This document shows positions 2,204 to 34,983 of a stretch of 64,000 nucleotides of DNA, one piece after another. The stretch covers positions 6,814 through 70,813 of the forward strand of contig CAJJNQ010000005.1 of assembly GCA_905193155.1 (NCBI GenBank). Direction: 5' to 3'. Source of the stretch: an uncultured Christensenella sp. (lineage in GTDB: Bacteria; Bacillota; Clostridia; Christensenellales; UBA1750). Position numbers and translations under genes: made by a program. Positions within the stretch are counted from its first letter, which is position 1; each line of letters opens with the position of its first letter. The notes under the pieces were generated by a model. That model did not search any database. It had not been told where the DNA came from and saw only the letters and a program-made list of their open reading frames with translations.

Positions 2204-2439
2204 ACCAAACCTCCAACAAACGCATCGTTATTTAACAATCATTGTATCATCTTTCCCCGCGTTTGGATAGTTTATTTTTGCTGTTTTTCCGGCAGGATTT
2301 TTTGTGGCTTTGGTCGAATAGTGTGAATTGGCGTATTTGACCCGACTGTGCGCTGCGGAGCTTTTTTCGCCGCACCGACAGAGTCTATGCGCAAAATATA
2401 GAGATGAGAAATCACACCCATAGGAGGCGGACATCCTTT

Positions 2440-5400
2440 ATGAAATGCCCTTCTTGCGGAATTTGGAATAGAGCGCATTTTACCAAGTGCTTTCGCTGCG
2501 GCGCACCGCTGACCGGCGAAAAGAACGCATCCGAAAAGAAACCGGACGCCGAGGAAGAAGAAGTTTCCTCCTCCGTTGACGAATCGACGGCGGCCGAAAC
2601 ACCCATTTTCTCCCCCGAGGACGCGCCGGAGGTTCTGGCTGAAGCGGTGGAAGAATCGCTGGACGATGCGCAGCATCCGGAAGAGCCGCATAGCGGCGAG
2701 GAAGCCGATCCCCTTTCGGACAGCGAAATCTTCTCCCTCTATGATCAGGGCGACTGGTCAGACGACGAGGAAGACGATTCCGAAGAGATTTACGCAGGCG
2801 CATCCGCACCGCCGCAAGCGCCCTTCATCCGCCCGGTGGAAACGCTGGACGGCGACGATGAGCCGCCGACGGTTTACAGGCCTGCTGCGCCGGAAAAAAA
2901 GTCTCCCCCGCTCCCTTCCGTGCCGGAGGACGATGAACCCGTAACGGTCTATCGTGCGCCGGAAAAGCCGGCCGAGGAAGCACCCGCACAGGAAACCCGT
3001 CGTTTTGCACCGGTCTCGCCGGACGCAGTGGATGGCAGCACGCGCAAGTTCGCGCCTATCGGCACTGCCGCTGCGGCCGACGCTCCCGTTCCTCCTTTGA
3101 ATGACACGGAGCCGGAGGTCACGCCTACCGATCCTTCCATCAGTCACGAGATCATCCACGCGATCTTCACCAATCCGCCTGCGCATTTGGAGCCTGGGCA
3201 TGATATCATGGACGACCCGCGCCCGCGCAAGCTGATGAGCCGCAAGCGCCTGCCGCCGCAGCCGGAAATCGAGGAAGAACCCGAAACCGTATACAAGCCG
3301 CGCGAGCAAAAGGCGGAGCCCCGCGTAGACAACGTAGAAGAGTTCAAGCCCACCGCGCGCCTTGCAGCGCAAAAGGCCGATGAAAAGGGCGATGAATTCA
3401 CCGCCTTTGCTACCGCAAAGCGCAACTTGGTCGCCGAAGTGGAGCCGAATGATCCTTTTGAAGAAGCCATCGGCATTCCCCACAGCGAAAAAGCTGCGGA
3501 AGCGACGAAGGAGGAAGCGCCCGAAAAGGCGGAGACTCCTGCGGAAGCTCCCGCACAGCCCGAACCCGTTAAACCTGCGGAGCCGGAACAGCCCGCCTGG
3601 GTCAAGGAGGCTCTGCTCAATCTGGGACAGGAGCAGCAGATGAACAATCTTTCTTCTTCTCGCACGTCAGGCAATCGTTCCCGCCGCCTGCCCCAGCCCA
3701 ATCTGGAATACGAGCCGGAGACCGCGCAGCAGCGCCCTTCCCGCCGCGTGCAAGCGGAGGAAATCCGCCGCGAACCGGAAGAAGGCTTTGCGCCCCGTTC
3801 CGAGCGAAGAGAGCGCCCCTCCCGCCGCCCTGCCGTGCCGATGCAGCAGCCGCAGGAAGAGCCGGAAGCCCCGGCGTACAGCGCACCCCGCAGCGGTTTA
3901 GAGGCCATCGCCCGGTATGAATCCAACCGCAGTAACTCCGTGCTGAGCCGCCGCCGCACAGCGCCTGCGGCTGAGACTGCGCCGCAGGCGGAACCCATTC
4001 CCGCTCAGGAACAGCGTATGGAAGAAACCGTTCGCCCCGCTCGGAGAGAAGCGCGTCCCTTTCGCCCTGTCAGCCGCGCGCCGCAACGCGAAGAAATAGT
4101 GGAAGAAACGGAACGTTTGCCGCGGGAAGAGCGCCCGGAAGCGCCCACGCGGCTGCATTCCTCCCGCACGGCCGAACCCGACTCCTCCGCCCGCTTCAGC
4201 GCGAAGGAACTGCGCATCGGCGGACTGCGCGTGCAGAACCCGATCCGCGCCGCCATTGTCGCGCTCATCGCGCTGGCACTGGTCGGTCTGCTGATCTGGG
4301 GCATCGTGGCGGGTATTTCCGCCATTGCAAAGGGCGTTTCCAAGCCGAATCCGTCTGAATCCCCCGCTCCTTCGGAAACGCAGCCGGCGGAAGCGGATCC
4401 CAACGCGCCCGTGGTCACGACCGGTGAGGTCAACGGCCGGCCCGGACACATCATCACCTTCAAGGGCAATGACAATGACATCATCTATATTTCGGATGAG
4501 AACCTTTCCGGCAGCTACAACATCGCCATTGTAGACGGCATCGGCACGCTGCAAATTGAGGACAGCGCGCTGATCGGCGACCGCTATGTGGACAGTGATG
4601 TGGAAGTGACGCTCAATCCGGTTCTGCATGAATCGGGCAGCGGCAAGGAAACCAAGATGTCTCCCATCACCTTCACCGTCACCCCGCCGGACGCTTATCT
4701 GGAAATCGTCAGCCCGGCAGGCGGAGCGGATGAGACGACCCTGAGCATCTATCAGGTCAAGATCCGTGTGGAAACCGGCTCCTCCGTCACCATCGACGGC
4801 AACGACGTTTCCGACATGCTTACCGAAGAGGATAACGGCATGGGCTCCATCGTCACCAACGTCAACGTGGAAGCCAAGGGTGAAAACCAGATTCCGATCA
4901 CGGTCATGAAGAAGGGCTGCAAATCGGTCACGCAGAACATCGTGCTGACCCGCCCCGAAATGACCATCCCGATTGAGCTGGATGCTGCGACGCCTTCGAC
5001 GGTGCAGAGCGATACCGTCACCATCTCCGGCACGGTGGAAGCGGGCGTCAAGGTTTCCGTGACCTCGCCCATCAGCGGCGAAGTGACAAACAACAGCGAT
5101 GGCAGCTTCTCCTTTGTAGCCAAGCTATCCTTCGGTGAAAACGACATTGTCATTGTCGCCACCAAGGGCGAAGAAACCTCCACGCTGACCCACACCGTTA
5201 CCTATGAGCCGACTTACAGCGAATACGTCAACAAGGCGTACAAGATGGACTACGCCAATCTGGCCACTTATGCGGGCAAATATCAGCCCTTCCTGTGCAG
5301 CGGTCAGGTTGTGGAGGTATTCCAGACCGAGCCGTATACCTGCACCTTCAACGTGGGTACGGCAGAGGATCCCAAGTACATCTACCTCCAGATGGTGCCC

Positions 5401-5517
5401 GGCAAGCCGCTGGAAGAGGGCAAGACCTATAAGGTATACGCCGATGTGGATGCTTCCGGCACGAAGGACGGTTATCCCTACATGATCGGCCGCTTCTTCC
5501 TGGAGGTTGCGCAGTAA
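2440..5517 (+). CDS. Bitopic membrane protein: N-terminal zinc ribbon, ~600-aa acidic/Pro-rich disordered cytoplasmic region, one TM, ~395-aa extracellular beta-rich (Ig-like) region (TcaA/YvbJ-like architecture)
   Basis: ORF 2404..5517. I prefer the ATG at 2440 (MKCPSCGIWNRAHFTKCFRCGAPL) with AGGAGG at 2422..2427. TM is IRAAIVALIALALVGLLIWGIVAGISAIA (about 4246..4320). C-terminal part has repeated beta-strand-like segments (VTISGTVEAGVKVSVTSPISGEVTNNSDGSFSF). Confidence 0.8.
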   Translation: MKCPSCGIWNRAHFTKCFRCGAPLTGEKNASEKKPDAEEEEVSSSVDESTAAETPIFSPEDAPEVLAEAVEESLDDAQHPEEPHSGEEADPLSDSEIFSLYDQGDWSDDEEDDSEEIYAGASAPPQAPFIRPVETLDGDDEPPTVYRPAAPEKKSPPLPSVPEDDEPVTVYRAPEKPAEEAPAQETRRFAPVSPDAVDGSTRKFAPIGTAAAADAPVPPLNDTEPEVTPTDPSISHEIIHAIFTNPPAHLEPGHDIMDDPRPRKLMSRKRLPPQPEIEEEPETVYKPREQKAEPRVDNVEEFKPTARLAAQKADEKGDEFTAFATAKRNLVAEVEPNDPFEEAIGIPHSEKAAEATKEEAPEKAETPAEAPAQPEPVKPAEPEQPAWVKEALLNLGQEQQMNNLSSSRTSGNRSRRLPQPNLEYEPETAQQRPSRRVQAEEIRREPEEGFAPRSERRERPSRRPAVPMQQPQEEPEAPAYSAPRSGLEAIARYESNRSNSVLSRRRTAPAAETAPQAEPIPAQEQRMEETVRPARREARPFRPVSRAPQREEIVEETERLPREERPEAPTRLHSSRTAEPDSSARFSAKELRIGGLRVQNPIRAAIVALIALALVGLLIWGIVAGISAIAKGVSKPNPSESPAPSETQPAEADPNAPVVTTGEVNGRPGHIITFKGNDNDIIYISDENLSGSYNIAIVDGIGTLQIEDSALIGDRYVDSDVEVTLNPVLHESGSGKETKMSPITFTVTPPDAYLEIVSPAGGADETTLSIYQVKIRVETGSSVTIDGNDVSDMLTEEDNGMGSIVTNVNVEAKGENQIPITVMKKGCKSVTQNIVLTRPEMTIPIELDAATPSTVQSDTVTISGTVEAGVKVSVTSPISGEVTNNSDGSFSFVAKLSFGENDIVIVATKGEETSTLTHTVTYEPTYSEYVNKAYKMDYANLATYAGKYQPFLCSGQVVEVFQTEPYTCTFNVGTAEDPKYIYLQMVPGKPLEEGKTYKVYADVDASGTKDGYPYMIGRFFLEVAQ

Positions 5518-20409: not shown

Positions 20410-20430
20410 GATTTACGCACGATTAAGCAC

Positions 20431-20477
20431 AAAACCCTGCAGCAGCTGATGTACTGCCGCAGGGTTTTGTGCTTTTT
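20431..20477 (+). terminator. guaA terminator
   Basis: aaaaccctgc (20431..20440) pairs with gcagggtttt (20459..20468), followed by gtgcttttt. Confidence 0.75.
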
Positions 20478-20520
20478 GCTTTCATCCAAATCTGATTGAA
20501 CGCACGTAGTACTTGCAAAT

Positions 20521-20557
20521 GCAAAATAGACGGCGTCGGATAAATCCGACGCCGTCT
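20521..20557 (-). terminator. Terminator after the peptide ABC operon
   Basis: agacggcgtcgga (20528..20540) pairs with tccgacgccgtct (20545..20557), 13 bp with a 4-nt loop. attttgc follows on the minus strand. Confidence 0.75.
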
Positions 20558-20572
20558 TAGTTTTACCCGATC

Positions 20573-22459
20573 TTATTCTTCGATCGTGCAGTACATGAAG
20601 TACTTGTAACCCAGGGGGTTAGAGTAGAAGCCATGCACGTTGCTGTCGAGCATATAAATATCGGTGTAGAAGTACAGGGGCACGATGCAGCCGGTCTGCA
20701 TCAGCATATCCTCAGCGATGTGCATCATGGCGTAACGGTTTGCAGAATCGGTGCAGGACTTGATGGAGGAAATCAGCACATCATAGGTCTGCGCCCAAGT
20801 GCCATTGGTCACGTTGACGTCATAACCGTAGGGAGTCAGATCCAGGTTGTAGATCGCAACATCGGCGTTCGCGCCCTTGCCGAACTGAACATCATTGTTG
20901 CCGGAAGCCGTGGTCCACATATCCAGGAAGCAGATCGGGTCGTTGTAGTCGGCCACCCAGCCGTTACGGGCGATGGAGTAATCGCCGTTCTTACGGGTGT
21001 TGAGGAAGGTCGCCCACTCCTGGTTCTCCAGGTTCATGGTGATGCCGACAGCGGCCAGCGCAGACTGCAGGTACTCACCGGTGGCCTTGTGGCTTTCACC
21101 GGTGTTGTACAGGTAAGTCAACGTGGGGAAATCGGTGAACTGCTGGGTCGCCTCGTCGAAGGTGTAGTACTTCTTCAGGGTCTCCACAGCGGTGTTAAAG
21201 TTGGACTCGAAGGAATCCTTGGACACATCGTAGTAGCCGTCGAAGGCGTCGTTGTGGCCGGCGTTCTGGTAGAACTGAGAACCATCGGCATCCGTCATGC
21301 CCATCGAAACGAAGGAGGAAGCGGGAACCTGACCGGCCTGGCCGATTTCCTCAACGATGTAGTTGCGGTCCAAGAGCAGGCCGATGGCGTTGCGGATCTC
21401 TTCCTTAGCCTTCTCGGCGTCCGCGCCGGTCAGCGTGGAGGAAGCGGGCAGGATTTCTTCATTGATGTTCCAGCAAACATAGTACGTACCAATCTGGCCG
21501 GCGACAACGAACTCATCCGGATATTCTTCCTTCAGGGAAGCGATCTCATTGGTGGGAACATCGTCGATCAGCTGCCAAGAACGGTTCTCGAAGTTGGAGA
21601 GCATGTTGTTGGCGTCATCGGACAGATAGAAGTTGATCGTGTCCATGGTGATGGCATCCGCATTATAGTAGTTGGGGTTCTTCTGCAGGGAGATCACACT
21701 GTTGTGATCCCAAGCAGCCATGGTGTACGGGCCGTTGCAGACATAGGTGGAAGGATCGGTCGCCCAGGCTTCGTTGGCCACAACATCCTCACGAACGGGG
21801 AAGTAGGCCGGGAAGGCGAGCAGCTCATTCCAGTAAGCAACTGTGTTGGACAGAGTCACCTGGAGGGTCTTGTCGTCCAGAGCAACGACATTCAGCTCCG
21901 CATCGGGGTTGACGTAGTTGCCTGCGTCGTCGGTCGCCCAAACATCCGCATAGCCGTCCACGACTTCGAACATGTAGCCGTAGTCCGCAGCCAGCGCGGG
22001 GGAAGCAGCGCGCTTCCAGGCAAAGGCGAAGTCACCGGCAGTAACAGGCTGGCCGTCAGACCAAGTCATGCCATCGCGCAGGGTGTAGGTGTAGGTCACA
22101 GTGCCGTCCTCGTTGGTCACGCCTTCAGGCAGCTCAGTGGCTGCATCTGCAACGATCTCGAGGTTGCCGTTTTCGTCCTGTGCCCACTTGGCCAGGCCGC
22201 TGAACAGGTGCGCCGTCAGGGTCGCGCCGTCCACGGCGGAGTTGAGCGCAGGATCAATGGTATCCGGTTCGGAAGCCAAGCAGACATTGATGACACTGGG
22301 TTCCGCATTATCTGCGGGAGCGTCAGCAGATTCGGCAGGCGCTTCCGCGCTTTCAGCGGGAGCATCCGTGGGCGCTGCGCTTTCGGCAGGCGTGCTGCTG
22401 CACGCTGCCAGCGAGAGCACCATAGCAAGAGCCAACACAAGAGCAAGGATCTTCTTCAT
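20573..22459 (-). CDS. Peptide/nickel ABC transporter substrate-binding lipoprotein (SBP family 5)
   Basis: 628 aa. Lipobox LSLAACSS, Ala/Glu/Pro linker, then an OppA/DppA-like body. Confidence 0.85.
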   Translation of the reverse strand: MKKILALVLALAMVLSLAACSSTPAESAAPTDAPAESAEAPAESADAPADNAEPSVINVCLASEPDTIDPALNSAVDGATLTAHLFSGLAKWAQDENGNLEIVADAATELPEGVTNEDGTVTYTYTLRDGMTWSDGQPVTAGDFAFAWKRAASPALAADYGYMFEVVDGYADVWATDDAGNYVNPDAELNVVALDDKTLQVTLSNTVAYWNELLAFPAYFPVREDVVANEAWATDPSTYVCNGPYTMAAWDHNSVISLQKNPNYYNADAITMDTINFYLSDDANNMLSNFENRSWQLIDDVPTNEIASLKEEYPDEFVVAGQIGTYYVCWNINEEILPASSTLTGADAEKAKEEIRNAIGLLLDRNYIVEEIGQAGQVPASSFVSMGMTDADGSQFYQNAGHNDAFDGYYDVSKDSFESNFNTAVETLKKYYTFDEATQQFTDFPTLTYLYNTGESHKATGEYLQSALAAVGITMNLENQEWATFLNTRKNGDYSIARNGWVADYNDPICFLDMWTTASGNNDVQFGKGANADVAIYNLDLTPYGYDVNVTNGTWAQTYDVLISSIKSCTDSANRYAMMHIAEDMLMQTGCIVPLYFYTDIYMLDSNVHGFYSNPLGYKYFMYCTIEE

Positions 22460-22512: not shown

Positions 22513-23502
22513 TCAGTTGATTTCGTTCACCTTGTGGCAGGCAACGAAGTGGCCGGAGGAAACCTCCTTGAATTCCGGCATACTTTCCGCGCACTGCTCA
22601 CCGGCATAGGGGCAGCGCGTGCGGAACGGGCAGCCGCTGGGCGCGTTGAGCGGGCTGGGAATATCGCCCGAGAGCACGATGCGCTGGTTGGCGCGCGCGA
22701 TCTTGGGATCCGGAACCGGCACGGCAGACAGCAGGGACTTGGAATACGGGTGCAGCGGATGATCGTAGATCTCCGAAGCACTTGCAAGCTCCACCATCTT
22801 GCCCAGATACATCACAGCGATGCGGTCGCTGATGTGACGCACCACGAGCAGATCGTGCGCGATGAAAAGATAGGTCAGCCCCAGCTGCTGCTGAAGCTCC
22901 GCAAACATATTGATGACCTGCGCCTGAATCGAAACGTCCAGAGCGGATACCGGCTCGTCGCAGACGACAAAGTCGGGGTTGACAGCAAGCGCTCGTGCGA
23001 TGCCGATGCGCTGACGCTGACCGCCGGAGAACTCGTGCGCATAGCGCGCCGCGTGTTCACTGTTCAGGCCGACATAGCTCATCAGCTCCAGAATGCGTTC
23101 CTGACGCTCCTTCTTGGAAGAATAGAGCTTATGGACATCCAGCGGCTCGCCGATGATATCCGCAACCGTCATGCGGGGATTCAGCGAAGAATACGGATCC
23201 TGAAACACCATCGAAGCCTTCTGGCGGAAGGCCTTGATATCGTCCTTCGTCACGATCTTCCTGCCGTGGTAGTAAATCTCGCCCGCCGTGGGCTTGTAAA
23301 GGTGCAGGATTGTGCGGCCGACGGTGGTCTTGCCGCAGCCGGATTCGCCGACCAGACCCAGCGTCTCGCCCGCTTTGATGGAGAAGCTCACATCGTCCAC
23401 GGCCTTGAGGGGCTTGGTGCGGAACAAACCCATATTGATATTGAAGTATTCTTTCAGGTTTCTTACATCGATGATCGGCTGTGCGTTTTCATTCTTGTTC
23501 AT
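22513..23502 (-). CDS. Oligopeptide/dipeptide ABC transporter ATP-binding protein (OppF-like)
   Basis: 329 aa. Walker [12 protein letters not shown], signature [16 protein letters not shown]-terminal oligopeptide-type extension with Cys pairs. Confidence 0.9.
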
Positions 23503-24539
23503 TTTTCAGCACCGCCTTTCTCTTCAGGGTTCTCCTCTGCTGCATCATCCAGCGAGATTGTGCCGTCCTCCACGCCCTTTTTGACGTTCATCCAACAGGC
23601 AGCCATATGATCCTGATTGATGACCATGCGCTCGGCGCAATGGTTCAGGCAGATCTTCATGGCGTTTTCGCAGCGCGGGGCGAAGGGGCAACCGACCGGC
23701 ATATTCAGCAGATCGATGGGTGTGCCCTTGATGGGTTCCAGCTTCATGCCGACGTTTTCGTTGGAGGGAATGGAACGCAGCAAGCCCTTGGTATACTCAT
23801 GAGCAGGGTTATAAAAGATCTCATCTGCCGTGCCCTGCTCGCAAATGGAACCGGCATACATGACAATGACTTCGTCGCACATCTGCGCCACAACGCCAAG
23901 GTCGTGGGTAATCAAGATGATCGCCATGCCGAGTTCCTTTTGCAGGGACTTCATCAGGTCGAGGATCTGCGCCTGGATTGTGACATCCAGCGCGGTGGTC
24001 GGCTCGTCGGCAATCAGGATATCCGGCTCGCACGCCAGCGCCATGGCGATCATGACGCGCTGGCGCATGCCGCCGGAAAACTCGAAGGGATACTGCTTCA
24101 TGCGTTTTTCCGGCTCGTTGACATTGACCAAGCGGAGCATTTCCACCGCGCGGTCATACGCCTGCTTGCGGTTGCGCTTGGTGTGCAGCATGATGGCCTC
24201 CATCAGCTGACGGCCGATGGTATAGGTCGGATTGAGCGAGGTCATGGGATCCTGAAAGATGATGGAAATGCGGTTGCCGCGGATGGTTTTCATCACCTTT
24301 TCGCCGGAACCGACCAGCTCCTGCCCGTCGAACTTGATCGAGCCGGAGGTGATTTTACCCGTTCCGGCAAGAATCTGCATGACGGAATAGGCCGTGACCG
24401 ATTTGCCCGATCCGGATTCGCCCACGATGCCGAGCACCTTGCCCCGCTCGAGGAAGAAGGACACGCCGTTAACCGCCTTTACCTCGCCCGCATCGGTGAA
24501 AAAGGAGGTGTGCAGGTCGTTGACTTCAAGCAAAGACAT
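23499..24539 (-). CDS. Oligopeptide/dipeptide ABC transporter ATP-binding protein (OppD-like)
   Basis: 346 aa. Walker [27 protein letters not shown]. 4-nt overlap with the OppF-like gene. Confidence 0.9.
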
Positions 24540-24557: not shown

Positions 24558-25619
24558 TCAGCCGTTGAGCTTGGGGTCGAATGCATCGCGCAATCCGTCG
24601 CCGAAGAGGTTCAGAGAAAGCACGATCAGGGAAATCACAACAGCGGGAATCACCATTCGGTACGGATAAGAAGAAATGCCGTTCAGCGCATCCGACGCCA
24701 GAGAGCCAAGAGATGGCATCGGCGCATTGACACCCAGACCCAGGAAGGAGAGGAAGCTCTCCGTAAAGATCGCATTGGGAATCTGCAGGGCCGTCGAAAT
24801 GATGATGACGCTGATGCAATTGGGAATCAGATGCCGCGTGATGATCCATCTGCCGGAAGCGCCGGTCGCCTGTGCGGCAAGGACATATTCCTGCTCTTTG
24901 AGGGAAAGAATCTGTCCGCGGATTAGTCGGGACATCGAAACCCAGTACAGCACACCAAAGACAATAAACAAACTGATGATGTTGCTGCCGATCTGCTCCA
25001 GCACAGTGCCTTCCAGAGAATTGCCGATGGCGACCTTCAGCACCGAAGCCAGCAGAATGACCATCAGCATGTCGGGCAAAGAATAAATAATATCCACGAT
25101 GCGCATGATGAACAGATCAACCTTGCCGCCGCAGTAACCGGCGATGGAGCCGATCGTCATGCCGACGATGAGCACGATGATGCTGGCAAAGAAGCCTACC
25201 GCAAGGGAAATTCGCGTGCCGTAAACCACGCGGATGAAATAATCGCGTCCTGCCGAGTCCGTGCCGAAGATATGCGGGAATACTTTCTCCCCGGCATCAA
25301 TACGCACCTGTTCGCTCTTGCCGTATTCAAACGGCGCAAGGTTTTTAAACGAGGCATCCACGGGCTTGCCGGGCGTCACGCCCAACTGCTGCTCGTAGGA
25401 ATAGGGCCAGAACATCGGGAGAATGATCGCAGCCAGCGTAATAATCAGCACGATAATCAAGCTGACCATTGCGACTCTGTTTTTCATCAAGCGTCTGCAC
25501 CCATCCTTGAAAAAAGTACTGGATGGCCGCATTTGCACCATATAGGCTTTTTCTTCATCCGTTGCCGGAGTAAACGCATCCAGATCAACATGAAAGCTGA
25601 ACGGCTTTTTCTTCATCAT
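24558..25619 (-). CDS. Oligopeptide ABC transporter permease (OppC-like)
   Basis: 353 aa. N-terminal OppC-type extension, six TM-like segments, EAA-region AAQATGASGRWIITRHLIPN. Confidence 0.85.
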   Translation of the reverse strand: MMKKKPFSFHVDLDAFTPATDEEKAYMVQMRPSSTFFKDGCRRLMKNRVAMVSLIIVLIITLAAIILPMFWPYSYEQQLGVTPGKPVDASFKNLAPFEYGKSEQVRIDAGEKVFPHIFGTDSAGRDYFIRVVYGTRISLAVGFFASIIVLIVGMTIGSIAGYCGGKVDLFIMRIVDIIYSLPDMLMVILLASVLKVAIGNSLEGTVLEQIGSNIISLFIVFGVLYWVSMSRLIRGQILSLKEQEYVLAAQATGASGRWIITRHLIPNCISVIIISTALQIPNAIFTESFLSFLGLGVNAPMPSLGSLASDALNGISSYPYRMVIPAVVISLIVLSLNLFGDGLRDAFDPKLNG

Positions 25620-25631
25620 CTTTCTGCCTCC

Positions 25632-26495
25632 TTACTCCAGCTCGATCCGAGGATCGACGATTTTATAAAGAATATCGCTGACCAGATTCATGACGATAAC
25701 CAGAATTGCCAGCACAATGGTCGTGCCCATAATCAGCGTGTAGTCGCGGCCGGTAATGCTATTGACAAACGCACGGCCGATGCCGGGAACCGCAAAAATC
25801 TGCTCCACGACCAGCGAACCCGTGACGATATAGGCAATCATCGGGCCGGCATAGGTGATGACGGGGATGAGAGAATTCTTCAAAGCATGACCGAAAATGA
25901 TCCGGAAGCCCGGAACGCCCTTGGCTCTAGCCGTGCGGATATAATCCTGCCCCAGCACGTCCAGCATGGACGAGCGGGTCAAACGGGTGATATAGGCCAT
26001 CGGGTACAGGCCGAGGGTCACGATCGGGAGTATCAAGCCCGTCGTTGTGGAACCGTTTGCCGGCAACCAGCCGAGCTTGACGGAGAACACAATCAGCAGC
26101 AGCGAACCCATAATGAACGATGGCATCGAAACAAATGCAGTCGTAATCACCATGATGACTTTATCAATGATCCTGTTGCGGCGAAGCGCGGCAACCGCGC
26201 CGAATACGATGCCGAGAATCATCGCGCCGAAAGCTGCAATCAAGCCGAGCTTGGCAGAGGTCTTCATGCCGTCGCTGATGATATCGACGACCTGACGGCC
26301 GCGTTGCTTCAGGGACGGGCCGAAATCGAAGCGGGTTACAATATCCTTAAGATAGGTTCCATACTGCTCCAAAAGCGGCTTATCCAAACCATATTTGGCC
26401 TCCATGGCCGCCTGAACGGCAGGCGTCGTCGCCTTTTCTCCGACGAAAGGACCGCCGGGAACAGCACGCCAATTTCCAACAGAAAAACGCAGCCC
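25632..26495 (-). pseudogene. OppB-like permease gene, 5'-truncated: missing about 28-30 N-terminal codons (TM1). First usable start is ATG at 26405
   Basis: Track ORF 25632..26405 starts MEAKYGLDKP. In-frame upstream codons still read ...RAVPGGPFVGEKATTPAVQAA (the OppB PGGPF region). They run into an in-frame TGA at 26498..26496 inside the upstream terminator hairpin. No ATG, GTG or TTG lies in between. Confidence 0.55.
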
Positions 26496-26527
26496 TCAGT
26501 CATCATACCGAAGGCTGCGTTTTTTTG
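26481..26527 (-). terminator. Terminator closing the pilus operon
   Basis: acgcagcc (26487..26494) pairs with ggctgcgt (26513..26520). T-runs on both strands (tttttct on the minus strand). Confidence 0.75.
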
Positions 26528-26564
26528 CTTTATTTGCATTCTGACAAACCAGCGTTTTCTTCGC

Positions 26565-27209
26565 TCACGCGTACGCGCGCTCTTCGAGCACGCAGCGCAC
26601 CGTCACGCGGGATTGGCCACCGACTGTGCAGGTAAACAGCGTCATATCCCAATCCCCGCTCGTCATCTTTTCAACCGCAAAAGGTGAAAGAATCTCCATC
26701 TCAGCGGTTCTATATCGAAATACATTTCCGTCCATGTCTGTGAAGATTACTTCTTCACCCTGCGGCAGGTCTTTCAGCCGTCCAAAATGACTGCGGTAGT
26801 TATGAGCAGCGATCACCATGTTGTTCAGATAGACAGAACCCGCATAACGGCAAGGAGCAGTTCTCAAATTGGAATAACTCCATTCACCGATCACAGGCAG
26901 ATCCAGCGACAAAGCCGGTATGGTCAACACACCGCTATATTCCTGACCGTCTACTTCCTCCTGCGGCATATCCATTTCCGGGTTCAGCACATAATCTGGA
27001 ATATAGGCCTCCTCCAATGACTCGCCGGATGGGAGATCAGGCAGGCTCATATTGATGTGCTCCTGAATATCGGAGTTCAGCTGCTCGAGAACCCGTTCGG
27101 ATGAATCCCCCGCCGCCTTATCGCACCAAAGATTATAAGCCGCAAGAAGGAGCGCCGCCGTCAGCAGCAGCAGCCCCATCCCCATGCAGATCTTGCTTTG
27201 TTTACTCAT
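26565..27209 (-). CDS. Sortase (transpeptidase), class not assigned
   Basis: 214 aa. N-terminal TM, VIAAHNYRSHFGRL (catalytic His region), MTLFTCT (TLxTC-type Cys), SRVTVRC (Arg). 8-nt overlap with the upstream pilin gene. Confidence 0.8.
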   Translation of the reverse strand: MSKQSKICMGMGLLLLTAALLLAAYNLWCDKAAGDSSERVLEQLNSDIQEHINMSLPDLPSGESLEEAYIPDYVLNPEMDMPQEEVDGQEYSGVLTIPALSLDLPVIGEWSYSNLRTAPCRYAGSVYLNNMVIAAHNYRSHFGRLKDLPQGEEVIFTDMDGNVFRYRTAEMEILSPFAVEKMTSGDWDMTLFTCTVGGQSRVTVRCVLEERAYA

Positions 27210-28458
27210 GATCCCTATTCTTTCTCGAAGCAGTTCCCACGATCAAAAAAGCCAGCCCCGTCACAGCGAGGATTGGTACCGGCCACCAGAGCACACCTGT
27301 CTGAGGCAGCTTCTGCTTGCTCAGCATATTGGTGAGCACAAATGTATCGCCATTCAGCCGAACAGCGGATCGATAGCCGGAAACCGCAGCCTCGCGAATC
27401 GTCCAGCTGATTTCCTTACCGCTTTGATCTACCTTGGGAAGCTTATCCCATGTGTACTGCCACCCGTTTGCTTCACTCAAGGTTCGGGTTTCAAAAGCAA
27501 CGTCGTTTTGCAGCAGCGTCACCTGCACCGATTCCGGACGGCGATTCTCATACCCCTGATCATCCCATACTTTCAGCACCGTCCGCGTGACGGTATCTCC
27601 CGACGGCGGATCGGGCGCATAGGTATTTGTGACGGTAAAGGTGATCCCCTCGGCACTGATGAGCACCGTGTAATGGGGAAGCTCCTTTTCCACCACACTC
27701 CAGATGATCTTGGAACCGTCCCGGTTATATTCGGGAAGCTTTCCCCAGAAATGCCGCCAGCTGTTCGCCTCGCTGAGGATCACTGTGTCGTATACAATGT
27801 TGTCCTTGAGAAGCTGAACTGTGACTTGCTGCGGACGGAGCTGAGGAATATCCTTCTTCCATACCTTCAGAACCTTGCGGTCGACCGTCTGTTCGGACGG
27901 TACAGGCGGATTTTCCGTCTGCGTATGCTTGGGAACTGCGGTCACATCGTATGACCAAACGTCGCTTTCCTTCTGGGGATTGGGCAAAGAAACCAGAAAC
28001 GGCTCGGTGATGTAGGTAAAACCGTCCTTCACCAGCTTCCGGCCGATAACCAGATACAGGCCCGGCTTCAAGCCCGCCTGCTGATTCGGGAAACGGAGGA
28101 TCCCCTGCCCGCCCGTCTTTCCGCTATCCAAGGGCTTGAGTTGATCCCGATCCGCGTACACAGCGAGTGTTTCCGCAAGGCTTTTCCACGCATCGGCAGA
28201 TAGACCGTTGACCGAGACAGGATACTTCCGGAAATCCCCCGCAAGGGAAAACTCCGCATAGGCATCCACATCGGCCACAAAATACAGGTCAAAAGGCACA
28301 TCTGATACCGGTTTTTTGCTGTGCCTGAATTCAATCGTGAGGCGCACGTCCCTGTTCAGGTCGATCACAGCGGCTGCAAACGTCTGAGCAGGGAACAGGG
28401 CGAGCACGCACAGCAAACACAGCAAGCCTGTGATCACTCGGCTACTCAGTTTTCGCAT
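27202..28458 (-). CDS. LPXTG-anchored minor pilin / CnaB-repeat surface protein (LPQTG)
   Basis: ORF 27202..28521. I prefer the ATG at 28458 (MRKLSSRVITGLLCLLCVLALFPAQTFA signal peptide). Two CnaB-like repeats (VLKVWKKDIPQLRPQQVTVQLLKDN..., VLKVWDDQGYENRRPESVQVTLLQND...). C-terminal KLPQTG, then TM, then RKNRDHE. Confidence 0.85.
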   Translation of the reverse strand: MRKLSSRVITGLLCLLCVLALFPAQTFAAAVIDLNRDVRLTIEFRHSKKPVSDVPFDLYFVADVDAYAEFSLAGDFRKYPVSVNGLSADAWKSLAETLAVYADRDQLKPLDSGKTGGQGILRFPNQQAGLKPGLYLVIGRKLVKDGFTYITEPFLVSLPNPQKESDVWSYDVTAVPKHTQTENPPVPSEQTVDRKVLKVWKKDIPQLRPQQVTVQLLKDNIVYDTVILSEANSWRHFWGKLPEYNRDGSKIIWSVVEKELPHYTVLISAEGITFTVTNTYAPDPPSGDTVTRTVLKVWDDQGYENRRPESVQVTLLQNDVAFETRTLSEANGWQYTWDKLPKVDQSGKEISWTIREAAVSGYRSAVRLNGDTFVLTNMLSKQKLPQTGVLWWPVPILAVTGLAFLIVGTASRKNRDHE

Positions 28459-29287
28459 TTTTCTTTCCTCCGTCCGATTTCTTTTTCTTCCCCGATACCA
28501 GCAGGATGAACAGCAGTGCAAGAAGCATCGGCAGGGCTACGGCGGGCGCAACGATCAGGGGATCAATCTCCATGGCGTCCGAAGTGACTCGGATCTCCTC
28601 TGATTCATTTTCCACGCGGTGGCCGCGCACCAGAAGCCGGTGGGAGTTGACGCCGTAAGGCGTGCACGTGACGAGGGTGCACAGATCCTTCCCTTTTTCG
28701 ATTGCCAGTGCGGACAGGTCGTTCGGCTCGACAATCAGGATCTGATCCACTTCATAGGTCATCACTTCGTCCAACACGCGGATCACAAACTTATCCCCTG
28801 CCACCAGCTTATCCAGATTGGTAAAGAGCTTCGCGCTGGGAAGACCGCGATGCCCAGACAGAACGCAGTGGGTGCCTTCCCCCCCTACCGGCAAGCTGGA
28901 CCAGTCCAGATGCCCAACGGCGATCTGAAGCACCTCGTCCTCCGTGCCATGATAGATGGGTAGAGAAATTTGGATGGTCGGGATCTCAATATATCCCATG
29001 ACGCCCGTCCCATTGACGTCAAGGAGTGCATTGTATGTGCTGCGATCGCTTTCGGAAAGGAAGAAGGCCTTGTATCTGCCGGGGAGCGCCGCGTTATACT
29101 CCCTTGCTTCCCCGATCAAGCGGTCGTATTTATCGGCATTGAGGTTTCTCACCTCTTCGGAATAGGTTGCCACCGCCTGGGACGCATGGAAGGAATTCCA
29201 ATAGTCGCTCAAGGAGGGATACAGAAGCAAGGACAGTCCTGCAAAAAACACCAGAATCAGCAGCATCGTTGAGAGTTTTCTTTTCAT
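28442..29287 (-). CDS. Class C (pilus-polymerising) sortase
   Basis: 281 aa. N- and C-terminal TM helices, VLSGHRGLPSAKLF, TLVTCTPYGVNSHRLLVRG. Confidence 0.9.
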   Translation of the reverse strand: MKRKLSTMLLILVFFAGLSLLLYPSLSDYWNSFHASQAVATYSEEVRNLNADKYDRLIGEAREYNAALPGRYKAFFLSESDRSTYNALLDVNGTGVMGYIEIPTIQISLPIYHGTEDEVLQIAVGHLDWSSLPVGGEGTHCVLSGHRGLPSAKLFTNLDKLVAGDKFVIRVLDEVMTYEVDQILIVEPNDLSALAIEKGKDLCTLVTCTPYGVNSHRLLVRGHRVENESEEIRVTSDAMEIDPLIVAPAVALPMLLALLFILLVSGKKKKSDGGKKNAKTE

Positions 29288-29409
29288 TCGCAGGATTCTC
29301 CTTGCTGCTGTAGGGACGGCGCGCGGAAAAACGCTCCGCCCCCTTTGCAGCCATTTTTTGAGGGTTTGCCGGCGCGTCCGCTTTGATCGCGTCAGCGCCC
29401 GCTCATTTT

Positions 29410-30942
29410 TCAGTCGTCGGTCTTATTCATACGCTTTTTCGTGACGAGAACAACACCCGCCCCCACAGCCAGCAGGCCGCCGAGGAGATAGAACACGGTG
29501 GTGCCGACGCCGCCGGTTTCAGGAAGGGTCGAACCGGTTTTGTTTACAATATTTGTACTCAGCGCATCGGAGGCCACAGCCGTGCCGACCATAACCGTCA
29601 CGCTCGTGTAATCGGAGCCATCCTCCACATAGGAAGCGGAGATCTTGAACTGTACAGGCTCGGACAGCAGATTATAGCCACCGGGCGCTTTTGTCTCATA
29701 CAAATAGTAATCAATGGTATCGTCCAGTCCCTTGATAACGGGATCGCCTGCCTCGATCACATAAACAACGTTCGCATCGCCGTCCATTGCAACGCGGTAT
29801 ACGCCATTGGCGGCCTTCACCATGCCGATAAGCCCCGTGGTAACAGCAGGAATGCCTTCATCATTGCAGTTCATATCCGCAACCTTGAGTGCGCCGTTTT
29901 TAGACAGGGCAAGCTTTGCGCCGGTCAACGCTTTGCCGGTTTCGTCCACCTTGTTGACGCCCATCTTGAACGTCCAGTCATAGACCTTCTTTTCAGGGGT
30001 CTTTCCTTTCTCGGTGTCAACATTGGGATTGTTGCTGTATTCAAGATAAGCCGCGTTTTCCTGCTTTCCCTCGTCATACGCCTTGGCGTCAGCATTCAGC
30101 ACACCGGTATAGTAAGTAAAAAGCTCATTGTCATGGGCCATCTTTCCATCCTGAATCGCCTTGAGAATATCGACCCGGACGGAAAAGCTATTGCCGTTTG
30201 CGGTTACGGTGTAATACTCGGCAGGGAGCACAGTTGCATCGTTGACCTTGATCGTGACATCTGCGCTGGTCTTGACATTGGAAGTCAGTCCGGCAGACAT
30301 GGTATCGTGGATGATATAGTCGTATTTTGTGTAACCCGATGTATTGGGAACCTTGGTGATAGTGCGGAACTCAACGGTGTCTCCGATCTGGTTGTCGCCC
30401 ACAACACCCCATTCGCCGTTTTCATTATGCTTGATCTGCTTATTCAGTGTCGGCTTATCGCCCTTCGGAGCTGCGATCACGTTTCCGACAACCTTCATCA
30501 AATAGGCTGTATAGAAATCGTCTGCACCGGTGAGGGTATTGTCACTATCCTTGACCAGATAGTAACCGGGATTCAGATTGGTAATCGTATAGATACCGGC
30601 TCCGGCAGTGCTCACAGAGGGATTGGTCAGATATGACGCAACCGCCTTAGCAAAGGCACGCGCATCTTCCTCCGTGGTCAGGCTTTTTGCCTTTTCAGCT
30701 GCATTACCGAGCGCTGTCTGTCCTTCCGCCGTGATCCCGCTGCCCCACACAATGTCGGTAAGCACGGTCTTTCCCTCAACGGTCTGAAGGTCGCCCGCAA
30801 AGATCTGGTATGCCTGATAGGTATGGCCGGTCGATGAATTGGTGATGGTGATGGTGTACGATTCTCCCGCCGCAAGCGCGGATACGCCCAGTGCAAGCAC
30901 CAGCGCAAGCGTCAGCAGGAAAGCCAAAGCTCGTTTTATCAT
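29410..30942 (-). CDS. Major (backbone) pilin, SpaA/isopeptide-type, LPETG sorting signal
   Basis: 510 aa. Signal peptide, N-terminal TGHTYQAYQIFAGDL, E-box-like YYLYETKAPGGYNLL, C-terminal LPETGGVGTT, then TM, then KKRMNK. Confidence 0.85.
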   Translation of the reverse strand: MIKRALAFLLTLALVLALGVSALAAGESYTITITNSSTGHTYQAYQIFAGDLQTVEGKTVLTDIVWGSGITAEGQTALGNAAEKAKSLTTEEDARAFAKAVASYLTNPSVSTAGAGIYTITNLNPGYYLVKDSDNTLTGADDFYTAYLMKVVGNVIAAPKGDKPTLNKQIKHNENGEWGVVGDNQIGDTVEFRTITKVPNTSGYTKYDYIIHDTMSAGLTSNVKTSADVTIKVNDATVLPAEYYTVTANGNSFSVRVDILKAIQDGKMAHDNELFTYYTGVLNADAKAYDEGKQENAAYLEYSNNPNVDTEKGKTPEKKVYDWTFKMGVNKVDETGKALTGAKLALSKNGALKVADMNCNDEGIPAVTTGLIGMVKAANGVYRVAMDGDANVVYVIEAGDPVIKGLDDTIDYYLYETKAPGGYNLLSEPVQFKISASYVEDGSDYTSVTVMVGTAVASDALSTNIVNKTGSTLPETGGVGTTVFYLLGGLLAVGAGVVLVTKKRMNKTDD

Positions 30943-31008
30943 GGAACCTCTCCTTTTATCCTGTTTTTTGTAAATGAGTTGTCGGCATGCGCAAACCGAT
31001 TCAGGAGG

Positions 31009-34000
31009 CTACATCGTCCTCCTTTCCCCTTTGCGCCTCCGGCTGCATCCCAGTAGGAAGCCTGCCGCCAGCATGAGCGCACCGCTCAACGTGAACAAAG
31101 CGCTTCCCGGTCCGCCCGTTTCAGGGAGAACGTAATCCGACTGGATGCGGGTGTTCGTGATGATAAAAATATTTCCTTCGCGCTCGATATTCACCTCAAA
31201 GTCTTGAATCGGGATCTCTTCAACGGAGTAGTCATATGTCACCGTCTGACCCTCCGTATTCTCGCCGGTCAGCGGCAAATCCGTAAGCGTTTGCTCCCAT
31301 CCGTTTTCCGCCGAGAGCATCAGCTTGCCATAGACCGTCTTGGCGTTTTCGTTCCCATCCGGGATCTGATAGATACTGATCTCGATGCTGGGCACCGTTA
31401 TCTCCATCAGGTCTGAGCCGTCCTTCGCTTTCCAGAGCTTTTTAACGATCACAGAGATGCCGTCTCCCTCGGATTTGTCATTGGAGATCTGGATATGTCC
31501 CCCATTTTCTATGCTTCGTCCGTTAAAGTCATCCGGATGAGCGTACGGAGGCTTCTGGTCCTTATCCTCCATCCAGAAGAAGACCGGATCGCTCTTCAGA
31601 ACATAGTGTGTCGGCGCTTTTGTTTCAACCAACTTATACGCCACGTTCGGCTCCAGCGAAGTCAGCTTGATGGTTCCATCGGAATCCGTCGTCCACGGAT
31701 CCGCTGTATGCACCTTTTCCCAGTCCGTCCCCTCCCACTTGAAGAGATCAAACTCTGCTCCCGGCAGCACGACTCCCACGTTGCCCGTTTCGACCTTCTG
31801 TACGAAGATATGGCGCTCATCGGGTTCCGGCTCGTCGCCCGGGTCTTGAGGTTCGGTGATTTTTCCGAGGAAATCCGTTCGGTGGGACTCGGCGTTTACA
31901 TTTACACGGTCCGCTACGACGGTTCCGTTCAGATTTTGCCCGATATTGACGGTTGCTCCGGGCGCAATCACCGCGCCCGTCATCAGGTGGGTATGGATCG
32001 TGACGCCGCCGGCGTTCACAAAATTCCAAATCACCTTGCCCGCATAGAATTCCGTCACCTCGCCGACCCCTTGCTCCTGACCGTCAATGACGACCCTTGC
32101 CTGCGGAAGGTAGACCTGCGAAACGCCTGCGCAGTCCACATTGATGATGACCGTCCCGTTGTGGCCGGACCGAAAGCCGTCGATTTGCAATTTTCCGCCA
32201 AATTTTGACGCAAGCTCAGATGCACGGATCGACTCAACCCCTACGTCAGACGGCCTGCGCAGGATCAGCTTGCTGTGATCCGCCTGCAATTCCGATGCGG
32301 ATTTGAAGTCCAGATTTGCTTCGCGGAAGCCGCTCAATCTGGCCGAGATCCGCTCGATCTCTCTCCTTACGCGGTTCAGATCGATGAACGGGTCTTGCTC
32401 AGTATTCCTATCCTGAACCAAATGGCGCGGTCTGCTGATTTTTGTGCCGTTGATTGAAAACGCATTTCCATTGTCTGTAAAATCAACCGTATTCCCGCTG
32501 CCGATGGCCAGCACATGATCATTCCCGGAGGCGCTGTCGGGATGAACCTGAGCATATTCCTGAATATAGCTCAACTCATGAGGATACTGATTCGTACCGA
32601 AGTTGCTTCGGGCAAACAGTTTTTTAGCCAGCACATTGCCGTTCGTATGGGTAGACAGCGTCGCCGTGTCGAACGCAACAATATGGAAGCTGCCTGCCGT
32701 CCCGAGAGGGCTGTTGGAATTGTAGTATCTGGAATACTCCGGGTCGCGCAGAAAGCGATCCTTGACGTCGTTATACTGAAGATCGTAATTTCCGGCAATC
32801 AGTTTGTCCGGAGTCCCTAAGCGCACAAACAGAAACTCCGTGCTGTGGGGGAAGGAATCGTCGGACACCGTCAGGGAAGTCACATTTCCATCTCCATCAA
32901 GGACAGGACGATATTCCTTCGGCTCCGTAGGCTCGCTTTGGGGATTTCTGCAATAGTAGAACTTCAGCTCATCCTCAGGCTCCACATGGGCAAACAGCCC
33001 GCTTTGCCAGTTCATGACCAACTCATACTTTCCATACGGGGAAACACTCTGATCGTTGTTATCCTTCCTGACCAGATCGATCTTGTAGATCGCCGTTTTC
33101 TCAATGGTGTGTCCATGAGCCGCAAAGGAGTTCAAAATGTTCTGATAATCCGCCGCATCTTGAATTCTGATCCGGAGGCTGTATTCTTCAGGCGCATATC
33201 CGATATTTTCATCAAGAAGCGTAAGGGACGCCGTCAAACCTGACGACTCATCCGTATAGGTAAAGGTTTTTCCGTTTTTCGTCTCCGGCGGCGCGCTCCT
33301 CATTGCGATGCAGGATTGGTCATGCTTATGTTCCTGAAACTGGCAAAGGAGTGTCCCCTGCGCGTCCCTGCACGCCTCTGTGTGCGTATGTTCCGGCAAT
33401 CCGCATCCAAAGATGACGTTTTTATCTACACAGTCCTCCGTGTGGACGTGCTCCGGGATACTGCAAATCAGGGCATGGCTTTCATCATAGCATTCTTCCT
33501 TGTGGGTGTGTTCGCCCATGCCGCAGTGATACATGATCTCGGGCACTTCTGTAACGTCGTAACACGAGGCGTCATGCCGGTGCTCCTCCTTCCCGCAGAT
33601 CAGAACCTTCTTTTCTTCGGCAGAGTCAAAGCAGGCCTGGCTGTGTTGATGGCAAAGAGTCTGCACCTTTCCGCAGGCAAGGACGCCATTTGTATAGCAA
33701 GCCTCGGTGTGTTCATGCGGAATGGCTTCTCTCTGCGTGCAGATCAGGCTTTGCCGCGTCTTTTTACATTCTTCCGCATGGGTATGAGGCTCCTGCTCTT
33801 CTTTACCGCAGACGAGGGAAATTTCTTCGGTATAACAGTCCGCGCCATGCGTGTGCTCCTCGCTTTCCTCCAAGCCGCAGCTCAGCACCTGTTTTTGCTC
33901 ATAGCACTGTTCCGAATGCCGGTGTCCTTCGCTTTCCTCAAGACCGCAAACAAACTCCGTTTCCTCTGCATAACAAGAATCCGTATGCGCATGCTCCGGG

Positions 34001-34374
34001 ATCTCCGGCAAGGTGCAGATCAGATCCCCGTCTGAGGAAAAGCAGTTGGCGTCATGCTTGTGGATCACAAAGTCCGAATATCCGCAAATCAGGCTTCCAT
34101 CTGCACCATAGCACGCATCGCTATGGCTGTGCACCGGCTGCTCGCAGTGCAGACCCGAAGCCCCCATCTGCGTCTCATAACAGGATTCATCATGAGCATG
34201 AACTTCTTTCCCGCAGCCAGGCGTTTGAGTCAGCGTGAGTGCAGGCAAAATCAAGGCATATGTCGTACAGAATACCACGATGCAGCTCAGAACCGTTACG
34301 ACCTTGCGCCAGCGGTTTCTGCGGGCGCGGACGCGGCGGTAGCCGGTAATCTGCTCCGACAGGCGTTGTCTCAC
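31009..34374 (-). CDS. Pilus tip adhesin candidate: signal/TM, 14 Cys/His repeats, Ig-like region, choice-of-anchor-A-like domain, SpaA-like and CnaB-like domains, LPETG
   Basis: 1121 aa. PLGTAGSFHIVAFDTATLSTHTNGNVLAKKL resembles choice-of-anchor A. LPGAEFDLFKWEG...YKLVETKAPTHYVL is SpaA-like. ISVIVKKLWKAKDG... is CnaB-like. C-terminal VLPETGGPGS, then TM, then RRRKGERR. Confidence 0.85.
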   Translation of the reverse strand: MRQRLSEQITGYRRVRARRNRWRKVVTVLSCIVVFCTTYALILPALTLTQTPGCGKEVHAHDESCYETQMGASGLHCEQPVHSHSDACYGADGSLICGYSDFVIHKHDANCFSSDGDLICTLPEIPEHAHTDSCYAEETEFVCGLEESEGHRHSEQCYEQKQVLSCGLEESEEHTHGADCYTEEISLVCGKEEQEPHTHAEECKKTRQSLICTQREAIPHEHTEACYTNGVLACGKVQTLCHQHSQACFDSAEEKKVLICGKEEHRHDASCYDVTEVPEIMYHCGMGEHTHKEECYDESHALICSIPEHVHTEDCVDKNVIFGCGLPEHTHTEACRDAQGTLLCQFQEHKHDQSCIAMRSAPPETKNGKTFTYTDESSGLTASLTLLDENIGYAPEEYSLRIRIQDAADYQNILNSFAAHGHTIEKTAIYKIDLVRKDNNDQSVSPYGKYELVMNWQSGLFAHVEPEDELKFYYCRNPQSEPTEPKEYRPVLDGDGNVTSLTVSDDSFPHSTEFLFVRLGTPDKLIAGNYDLQYNDVKDRFLRDPEYSRYYNSNSPLGTAGSFHIVAFDTATLSTHTNGNVLAKKLFARSNFGTNQYPHELSYIQEYAQVHPDSASGNDHVLAIGSGNTVDFTDNGNAFSINGTKISRPRHLVQDRNTEQDPFIDLNRVRREIERISARLSGFREANLDFKSASELQADHSKLILRRPSDVGVESIRASELASKFGGKLQIDGFRSGHNGTVIINVDCAGVSQVYLPQARVVIDGQEQGVGEVTEFYAGKVIWNFVNAGGVTIHTHLMTGAVIAPGATVNIGQNLNGTVVADRVNVNAESHRTDFLGKITEPQDPGDEPEPDERHIFVQKVETGNVGVVLPGAEFDLFKWEGTDWEKVHTADPWTTDSDGTIKLTSLEPNVAYKLVETKAPTHYVLKSDPVFFWMEDKDQKPPYAHPDDFNGRSIENGGHIQISNDKSEGDGISVIVKKLWKAKDGSDLMEITVPSIEISIYQIPDGNENAKTVYGKLMLSAENGWEQTLTDLPLTGENTEGQTVTYDYSVEEIPIQDFEVNIEREGNIFIITNTRIQSDYVLPETGGPGSALFTLSGALMLAAGFLLGCSRRRKGERRTM
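33310..34215 (-). repeat. Coding tandem repeat: 14 units of C-x(4-7)-H-x-H-x(3)-C, period about 20-23 aa (residues 54-355 of the tip adhesin)
   Basis: HAHDESC, HSHSDAC, HKHDANC, HAHTDSC, HRHSEQC, HTHGADC, HTHAEEC, HEHTEAC, HQHSQAC, HRHDASC, HTHKEEC, HVHTEDC, HTHTEAC, HKHDQSC. Each is preceded by a Cys 4-7 residues before the first His. 29 Cys in about 300 aa. Confidence 0.9.
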
Positions 34375-34392
34375 TTTGATTTCCCTCCTTTG

Positions 34393-34983
34393 CTATCGAA
34401 TCGGGCCGAAGCTGTGCAATGGCCAGATACAAAAAAGTACTTTGCCGACGATTTGATCTTGCGCGATACAACCTACCGCCGAATTTCTGGAATCAACGGA
34501 GACCGAGCGATTATCCCCCATCAGGAAATAACGGTTATCCGGCACCTGATACGGCAGGTCGATATTGGTCTGTCCCAGCGATTTTTCCGCGAGATAGGGC
34601 TCGTCCAGTTCCTCATTGTTGACAAAAACGTTCCCGTCTTCGTCGATAAAAACCCAATCCGACGCGCCGGCGATGAATCTCTTGATCAGGAGCTTGTTTC
34701 CATGATAAAACGCGGCAATATCTCCCGCCTTAAAGTCATTTGTCTTCAAAGAGATCACAAGCTGGCCATCCTTCAGCGTTGGCGACATCGAGCTGCCATA
34801 AATGCGCAGCACCGGCATCCAGAGCGTCGCAACCAGCACCGCAACCGCTGCAACGACCAGCAGCACCGCAACCGTGCTCTTCAGCGTTTTTCCATAACGC
34901 GCCTTATAGCGCAGGCGATCCCTTTCCCGTTCGATTTGCTCCGCCGTGGGTAGGCTGACAGGTCTTTTATTCCTTCCGCTCAT
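34393..34983 (-). CDS. Signal peptidase I (S26 family), pilus-locus associated
   Basis: 196 aa. TM anchor, GSSMSPTL (Ser box), LIKRFIAG (Lys box), GDNRSVSVDSR. Confidence 0.9.
   Translation of the reverse strand: MSGRNKRPVSLPTAEQIERERDRLRYKARYGKTLKSTVAVLLVVAAVAVLVATLWMPVLRIYGSSMSPTLKDGQLVISLKTNDFKAGDIAAFYHGNKLLIKRFIAGASDWVFIDEDGNVFVNNEELDEPYLAEKSLGQTNIDLPYQVPDNRYFLMGDNRSVSVDSRNSAVGCIAQDQIVGKVLFCIWPLHSFGPIR

Follow-up and report, generated by a model that had tools for sequence, protein, structure and literature searches.

The window (the whole stretch of 64,000 nucleotides analysed here) very probably carries a strain-specific 384-bp deletion allele of an oppBCDFA-like operon, whose transporter is most probably silent and non-functional. 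The deletion lies between the terminator of an upstream pilus operon and the permease gene oppB and extends into the latter. Judging by the comparison with intact loci of the same species, it is an internal loss of native DNA, and there is no edge of a pilus island at this place. The allele is most probably a nascent pseudogene, that is, an inactivated operon. For an uncultured gut commensal, the locus offers a clean, datable example of a loss-of-function deletion at the clone level, a matter of ordinary biology.

The opp operon and its permease

The operon contains the following genes:

25632..26405, minus strand: oppB-like ORF, 257 aa, ATG start; corresponds to residues 53-309 of the intact permease
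24558..25619, minus strand: oppC-like permease gene, 353 aa, intact, with a strong Shine-Dalgarno sequence
23499..24539, minus strand: oppD-like ATPase gene, 346 aa, intact
22513..23502, minus strand: oppF-like ATPase gene, 329 aa, intact
20573..22459, minus strand: gene of a family-5 substrate-binding protein (OppA-like), 628 aa, intact, at the end of the operon

The rest of the window encodes core metabolism (glnA, hisFH, carAB, guaA, gdh, asnA, dapF).

The product of the oppB-like ORF contains the BPD_transp_1 domain (PF00528) with the coupling helix (E = 2e-43, profile positions 1-183 of 184). Its operon partners are an OppC-type permease, two oligo_HPY ATPases and an SBP_bac_5 binding protein. 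The gene is classified as a member of the Opp/Dpp/Nik-type permease family, closest to OppB. An intact orthologue, P0006, scores below the cut-offs of the NCBIfam equivalogs for OppB (305 vs 388 bits for NF007008, 309 vs 480 bits for NF045471), and thus the peptide specificity can only be presumed. On the other hand, this orthologue aligns end to end with E. coli OppB (PDB 8z21 chain A; residues 5-307 to 1-305, E = 1.4e-79), and the set of subunits, two permeases, two oligo_HPY ATPases and a family-5 binding protein, is shared with E. coli OppBCDF. The gene order BCDF-A, with the binding-protein gene last, sets the operon apart from the E. coli system.

The truncated reading frame

The N-terminal domain PF19300, which covers the first transmembrane helix (TM1) and the scoop region, was not found in the window ORF, even when the latter was extended by 30 codons. 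In the 257-aa protein (P0068), PF00528 is the sole domain, while every 309-aa orthologue contains PF19300. The window ORF does not encode six transmembrane helices, as it starts at residue 53, beyond TM1; it was aligned to positions 49-304 of the 306-position OppB model. Over the retained residues, the protein is identical to that of the intact strains. Compared with intact orthologues, as the first-pass annotation of this DNA had suggested, and likewise with E. coli OppB, the ORF lacks the first 52 residues, 31 of them at the DNA level.

The statements of that annotation on the sequence hold, with one correction. The ATG at 26405 (MEAKYGLDKP), which opens the 257-aa ORF, is the first ATG, GTG or TTG past the upstream stop. 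The codons in frame 5' of it still read RAVPGGPFVGEK…, and the complete in-frame extension, *GLRFSVGNWRAVPGGPFVGEKATTPAVQAA-MEAKYGLDKP, is free of ATG, GTG and TTG. The PGGP segment noticed near the OppB N-terminus corresponds to residues 35-38 of the intact 309-aa orthologue. The TGA at 26498..26496 is indeed in frame and lies within the terminator hairpin of the pilus operon. However, the homology does not reach this TGA, as had been stated there. It ends at codon R32 (26469..26467), and the nine codons between the TGA and R32 (GLRFSVGNW) are ordinary intergenic DNA found in the intact strains too. The oppB codons left upstream of the ATG form a separate feature:

26406..26469, minus strand: oppB remnant codons 32-52 (RAVPGGPFVGEKATTPAVQAA), the first part of the extracellular scoop region after TM1

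These codons cannot be translated, since they are not preceded by a start codon.

Intact loci of the same species

Intact oppB genes of 309 codons, preceded by an intergenic region of ~390 nt, were found in at least 20 contigs of the same species. A protein search returned ~440 contigs with a full-length OppB of 309 aa at 95% identity or more, and the 257-aa form in four contigs. Two contigs, L010 and L011, were rejected as carriers of the 257-aa form: each begins exactly at the ATG (98.1% identity to the window), and they are contig-edge artefacts. The search of genome contigs produced only relatives at 87% identity or less, the same species not being among them.

Intact OppB begins MNSKMLVYLLKRIGLAILTVWAVITITFFVM-RAVPGGPF. 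The intact state is ancestral: a start of the MNSK type, followed by TM1, is kept in 33 out of 33 related loci, and E. coli OppB agrees with this state. Thus orthologues that naturally start at the Met of the window were not encountered, and the loss of the promoter, start codon and TM1 suspected in the first-pass annotation is borne out by the 309-aa orthologues with their MNSK start.

In the eight long contigs with intact oppB (L001-L008; 98-99% nucleotide identity to the window), the genes follow in the order 2-hydroxyacid dehydrogenase, pilus operon, oppBCDFA, guaA, carAB, and the distance from the stop codon of the sortase gene to the start of oppB is 389 nt. The gene order was examined in L001-L008, L098-L101, L110-L118 and L120-L122. 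All these loci have the pilus operon, the terminator, 13 nt, the intergenic region of ~390 nt and oppB, in this order.

The deletion junction

The following features lie at the junction:

26483..26524, minus strand: core of the hairpin of the Rho-independent terminator that ends the pilus operon (stem of 18 bp, loop of 6 nt, T-run)
26470..26482, minus strand: CTGTTGGAAATTG, a 13-nt stretch of native intergenic sequence that separates the terminator from the junction and is the same in every intact strain
26463..26469, minus strand: deletion junction with the sole kept copy of GCGTGCT, located by alignment and BLAST

The junction sequence in the window is GGAAATTGGCGTGCTGTTCCCGG; its two sides meet as GGAAATTGGCGTGCT|GTTCCCGGCGG.

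Relative to the intact strains, the window has cleanly lost 384 bp between two direct repeats of 7 bp, GCGTGCT. Both copies are present in the intact strains, 384 bp apart (9709-9715 and 10093-10099 in L001; 10741 and 11125 in L121), one of them 13 nt past the terminator and the other at oppB codons 31-33. The window follows the intact strains collinearly across the sortase gene, the terminator and CTGTTGGAAATTG as far as GCGTGCT, past which it goes straight to GTTCCCGGCGG…, that is, to oppB codon 34 and onwards. In BLAST alignments, the blocks of the window overlap by exactly 7 nt, while the subject coordinate in L001 jumps from 9715 to 10093. The same 7-nt overlap and 384-nt jump were seen in every intact locus compared, including L121 and L122.

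Thus exactly one of the two parental repeat copies is kept, the flanks are collinear with the intact allele, and the junction contains no foreign DNA. By our estimate, a 7-nt match would occur by chance at a random junction with probability ~6e-5. Deletions between short direct repeats arise by slipped mispairing or illegitimate recombination and are classical in the lacI deletion spectra of E. coli. Slipped-mispairing deletions likewise have short direct repeats with one copy kept, contain no foreign DNA and span a few hundred bp. The process itself is deduced from the junction, and no mechanistic difference separates this class from the event in the window, which can be assigned to it.

The terminator is a GC-rich hairpin with a T-run at the end of the pilus operon, and it is present in all intact strains as well, following the gene of the 214-aa sortase, the last gene of that operon. 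The hairpin has dG of -32.3 kcal/mol (z = -6.38), and none of 200 shuffled sequences was equally stable. It was detected by the folding analysis and was not listed by a simple motif scan over 25500..26800. An miRNA family matching the terminator, the sole match in Rfam, was rejected as a chance hit.

The pilus operon

Upstream of the terminator lies a complete sortase-dependent pilus operon:

34393..34983, minus strand: signal peptidase S26
31009..34374, minus strand: tip adhesin, 1121 aa
29410..30942, minus strand: LPXTG backbone pilin, 510 aa
28442..29287, minus strand: class C sortase (276 bits vs the cut-off of 160)
27202..28458, minus strand: Cna_B minor subunit
26565..27209, minus strand: sortase, 214 aa, at the end of the operon; the conserved upstream neighbour of oppB in the species
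27202..34983, minus strand: the operon apart from this last sortase gene, unaltered by the deletion

The class C sortase, LPXTG backbone pilin, tip adhesin and Cna_B subunit are shared with SpaA-type sortase-dependent pilus operons. In the window the pilus operon is only a neighbour, unchanged by the deletion, and it does not form an island edge.

The first-pass annotation had placed a recombination breakpoint to within about 30 nt and interpreted it as the edge of a pilus island. The place was right, as the 7-bp repeat at 26463..26469 is inside this range, but not the interpretation: the gene order is identical in every intact locus examined, and the pilus side is collinear with these loci up to the repeat. 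If the operon were an inserted island, whose integration or edge recombination had cut off the 5' end of oppB, then one could explain why the truncation adjoins the terminator of the pilus operon, and also why the GC content over the pilus genes is slightly lower (0.51-0.56). Sister species with 86% OppB identity indeed have no pilus operon beside opp. However, the sister species differ at both flanks and thus have no bearing on the island. In more than 20 intact loci of the species, this pilus operon is in the same place and an intact oppB lies 389 nt downstream, also in strains with a 100% identical pilus operon, and the flank on the pilus side is native as far as the 7-bp repeat. No intact locus of the species among those examined lacks the pilus operon. 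Markers of mobility at the edge (integrase, tRNA gene, att repeats) are missing as well: there are no tRNA genes and no Rfam match in the window, and among the genes scanned around the pilus operon none has a recombinase or integrase domain. The neighbours at the edge are the signal peptidase, 2-hydroxyacid dehydrogenase and alpha-galactosidase genes. An origin of the truncation in an island insertion is therefore extremely improbable, and it would be wrong to call the pilus locus an island that ends here.

The pilus structural proteins (29410..34374) are the variable part of the locus when the window is compared with L001-L008. The tip adhesins differ by 31-46 aa and the backbone pilins by 16-38 aa, whereas OppB, OppC, OppD and OppF differ by 0-3 aa. 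About half of the nucleotide changes in the pilus structural genes are non-synonymous. This variability is consistent with diversifying selection on surface pili.

The deleted segment

The deleted DNA contains the sole good promoter-like site, the 5' leader, the ribosome-binding region, the ATG and codons 1-31 with TM1. The part lost upstream of the oppB start is 285 nt long and bears the only strong promoter-like site, TTGCCA-16-TATAAT (11 of 12 matches; L001 9913-9940). A scan for sigma-70-like sites on the minus strand over 25500..26800 of the window found none, and so the permease is left without a promoter 3' of the terminator, as had been noted at first pass. In the hydropathy profile of the intact protein, TM1 is at ~12-31 and the next transmembrane segment at 101-128. 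A search of the deleted segment with its flanks, and of the whole window, against Rfam revealed no riboswitch, leader or T-box.

In some strains, an in-frame ATG further upstream (L001 9955-10000) leads to gene calls of 325 aa. As the upstream extension is interrupted by TAA in L002 and L007, MNSK is the real start of oppB. The upstream ATG defines a uORF of at most six codons.

Seven copies of the motif TGCARR (TGCA[AG][AG]) lie on one strand at L001 9738-9895, within the segment deleted from the window, whereas 0.28 copies are expected from shuffling. All seven are upstream of the -35 hexamer. They were considered as an operator array, which was rejected as the motif is not conserved 5' of oppB in the sister species; they may form a species-specific regulator-binding array.

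Probable consequences for the transporter

The ancestral arrangement consists of the pilus operon ending in a strong terminator, ~390 nt with the opp promoter, and oppB starting from MNSK…. Nearly all strains sampled from the species still have it. In the window lineage, the two GCGTGCT copies would have misaligned, with the loss of one copy and all DNA between them. The anatomy of the junction points to replication slippage or RecA-independent illegitimate recombination as the route. Transcription of the opp genes would then be left only to read-through of the terminator of -32 kcal/mol. The sole possible OppB product would start from Met53 and have neither TM1 nor the scoop loop that contacts the binding protein, and it would probably be unable to adopt the native topology or to engage the binding protein normally. 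Thus it is the combined loss of the promoter, TM1 and the scoop loop that most probably makes the transporter silent and non-functional.

The scoop motif is the segment after TM1 that docks into the binding protein (PMC12136057). Its deletion from E. coli DppB impairs import and lowers the ATPase activity to about one quarter (PMC12136057). In this scoop mutant of E. coli DppABCDF the periplasmic segment directly after TM1 was engineered out (PMC12136057), and like it, the only possible product of the window lacks the scoop loop (…PGGPFVGEK…). Unlike the mutant, the window allele is natural, and TM1, the promoter and the native start are missing from it as well.

It is unlikely that the transporter still works despite a real deletion. 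It would have to be expressed by read-through of the terminator, and OppB would be a five-helix protein made from Met53 and acting together with OppC, OppD and OppF. Five-helix type I permeases do exist as a minimal core, e.g. MetI, which counts for residual function. The remaining opp genes are intact, and their private changes are synonymous rather than non-synonymous by 10:1, but recency fully explains this lack of decay, as intact strains have identical flanking DNA. The oppC, oppD and oppF genes each have a strong Shine-Dalgarno sequence of their own. Met53 is preceded by a Shine-Dalgarno-like AGGCGG (-5.8 kcal/mol), which is badly spaced, yet about as strong as that of the native start (-5.7 kcal/mol). 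The argument that there is no Shine-Dalgarno sequence before Met53 was therefore discarded, the native start being equally weak. However, the terminator is very stable, and hydropathy suggests that a charged N-terminal tail of ~48 residues would have to cross the membrane without TM1. Moreover, no natural orthologue starts at Met53, and the product would lack the scoop loop, whose removal cripples DppB (PMC12136057). An inactive transporter thus remains the preferred reading, and the annotation of the 257-aa protein as 'ABC transporter permease' should be flagged as that of a 5'-truncated pseudogene.

Age and frequency of the allele

Near-identical contigs from other samples were found via the exact sortase protein of the window. 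These contigs (ERZ28532333 NODE_61, DRR171955, SRR23268462 and others) match the window at 100% over the 10,747 nt that lie upstream of the junction and at 99.9-100% over more than 2 kb downstream of it (100% over 2.3 kb in some). All of them keep the 384-bp segment and the 309-aa OppB. L121 and L122, both intact, show this 100% identity over the 10,747 nt upstream, L122 with only two mismatches in 2,431 nt downstream. In L111, L112, L114, L117 and L118, again intact, the identity is 100% on both sides of the junction. The substitutions private to the window in the remaining opp codons are ten synonymous and one non-synonymous, and there are no frameshifts. As the flanks match those of intact strains and the remaining opp genes are undecayed, the deletion is very recent and at the level of a clone.

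Apart from the deletion, the window is identical to ERZ28532333 NODE_61 from ~37200 down to 24132. Mismatches between the window and L121 start only at 24131, within oppD, and continue at ~10-18 SNPs per kb down to ~18500. This onset of SNPs indicates a boundary of a homologous-recombination mosaic inside oppD.

The only other carrier found is ENA contig ERZ27263814:k141_183283, which matches the window at every position over 20.6 kb. It may derive from the window's own sample, and thus the independent confirmation of the allele is weak. One could therefore suppose that the deletion is an artefact of assembly or consensus and that the real genome is intact, the more so as this carrier is possibly built from the same reads, all other near-identical strains are intact, and chimeras occur in metagenome assemblies of this gene family, e.g. 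P0001, P0067 and P0093. However, the window is at least 64 kb long and k141_183283 is 55 kb, which places the deletion in at least two assemblies. Collapse of the assembly graph could hardly make such a join, because a 7-bp repeat is far below any assembler k-mer (k = 141 according to the contig names). Finally, the junction is built in the way that is classic for biological deletions between short repeats. We consider an artefact very unlikely.

The junction pattern had no matches in the JGI metagenomes; the control with the intact allele gave only four, so this search has little statistical power.

With 13 kb identical to intact strains except for the 384 bp, the locus could serve studies of within-host evolution or of strain-level peptide uptake.

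Lesions in sister species and other loci

There is a slight chance that the loss of the transporter is adaptive, and that within-host selection repeatedly knocks out the 5' end of oppB in gut Oscillospiraceae-like species. Examples of such selection would be escape from a toxic peptide or bacteriocin that enters via Opp, or from a phage that exploits the transporter. Indeed, several sister-species contigs have other lesions in the TM1-coding region: the end of a recombinase-in-trio (RIT) element in L106 and L107, a 46-nt deletion in L108 and a 7-aa deletion in P0076. However, these came from a search that favoured N-terminal variants, in a species represented by thousands of contigs. They may be no more than background noise or errors of assembly, and ascertainment bias explains them equally well.

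The RIT end sequence (L106 1-27, L107 1-58) adjoins oppB codon V30/M31 in two sister-species contigs from different samples. This points to a separate insertion event in the part of oppB that encodes TM1. An element of the RIT type, ~3.6 kb long, was found in an IMG/VR contig (L124 3961-7547). It contains tandem tyrosine recombinases of 415, 323 and 344 aa, all with PF00589, and has inverted-repeat ends TAATCCCGAGGATTGAGTTATCC, the end sequence seen in L106 and L107.

The 46-nt deletion in L108 (~370-385; JGI 3300030040) shifts the reading frame and corresponds to the chimeric N-terminus of P0103. The 7-aa deletion in P0076 is in frame and within TM1. In L102 (1-600), everything upstream of ~codon 15 is replaced by unrelated DNA. 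The lesions in L108, P0076 and L102 could be real variants or assembly errors. P0001, encoded on an ENA contig of 10.6 kb, is an OppB-like protein of 467 aa with an internal tandem duplication of ~residues 80-237, which is either real or an assembly artefact.

In the sister-species loci L015-L017, a gene of the SASA family (sialate O-acetylesterase-like) lies between oppB and oppC, and a gene of an M29 aminopeptidase follows the binding-protein gene. The operon has glycoside hydrolase genes around it. Transporters of this clade may have a substrate other than simple peptides.

For a 1037-aa ORF at 2404..5517 on the plus strand of the window, Pfam gave nothing at E<=1e-5. The GC content where it lies (0.61-0.64) is the highest in its half of the window.

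In L004, a gene with a GmrSD_N domain and an HNH nuclease gene are situated between the binding-protein gene and guaA (16156-17459). The pair, which is missing at the equivalent place of the window (~20410..20572), looks like a candidate defence system.
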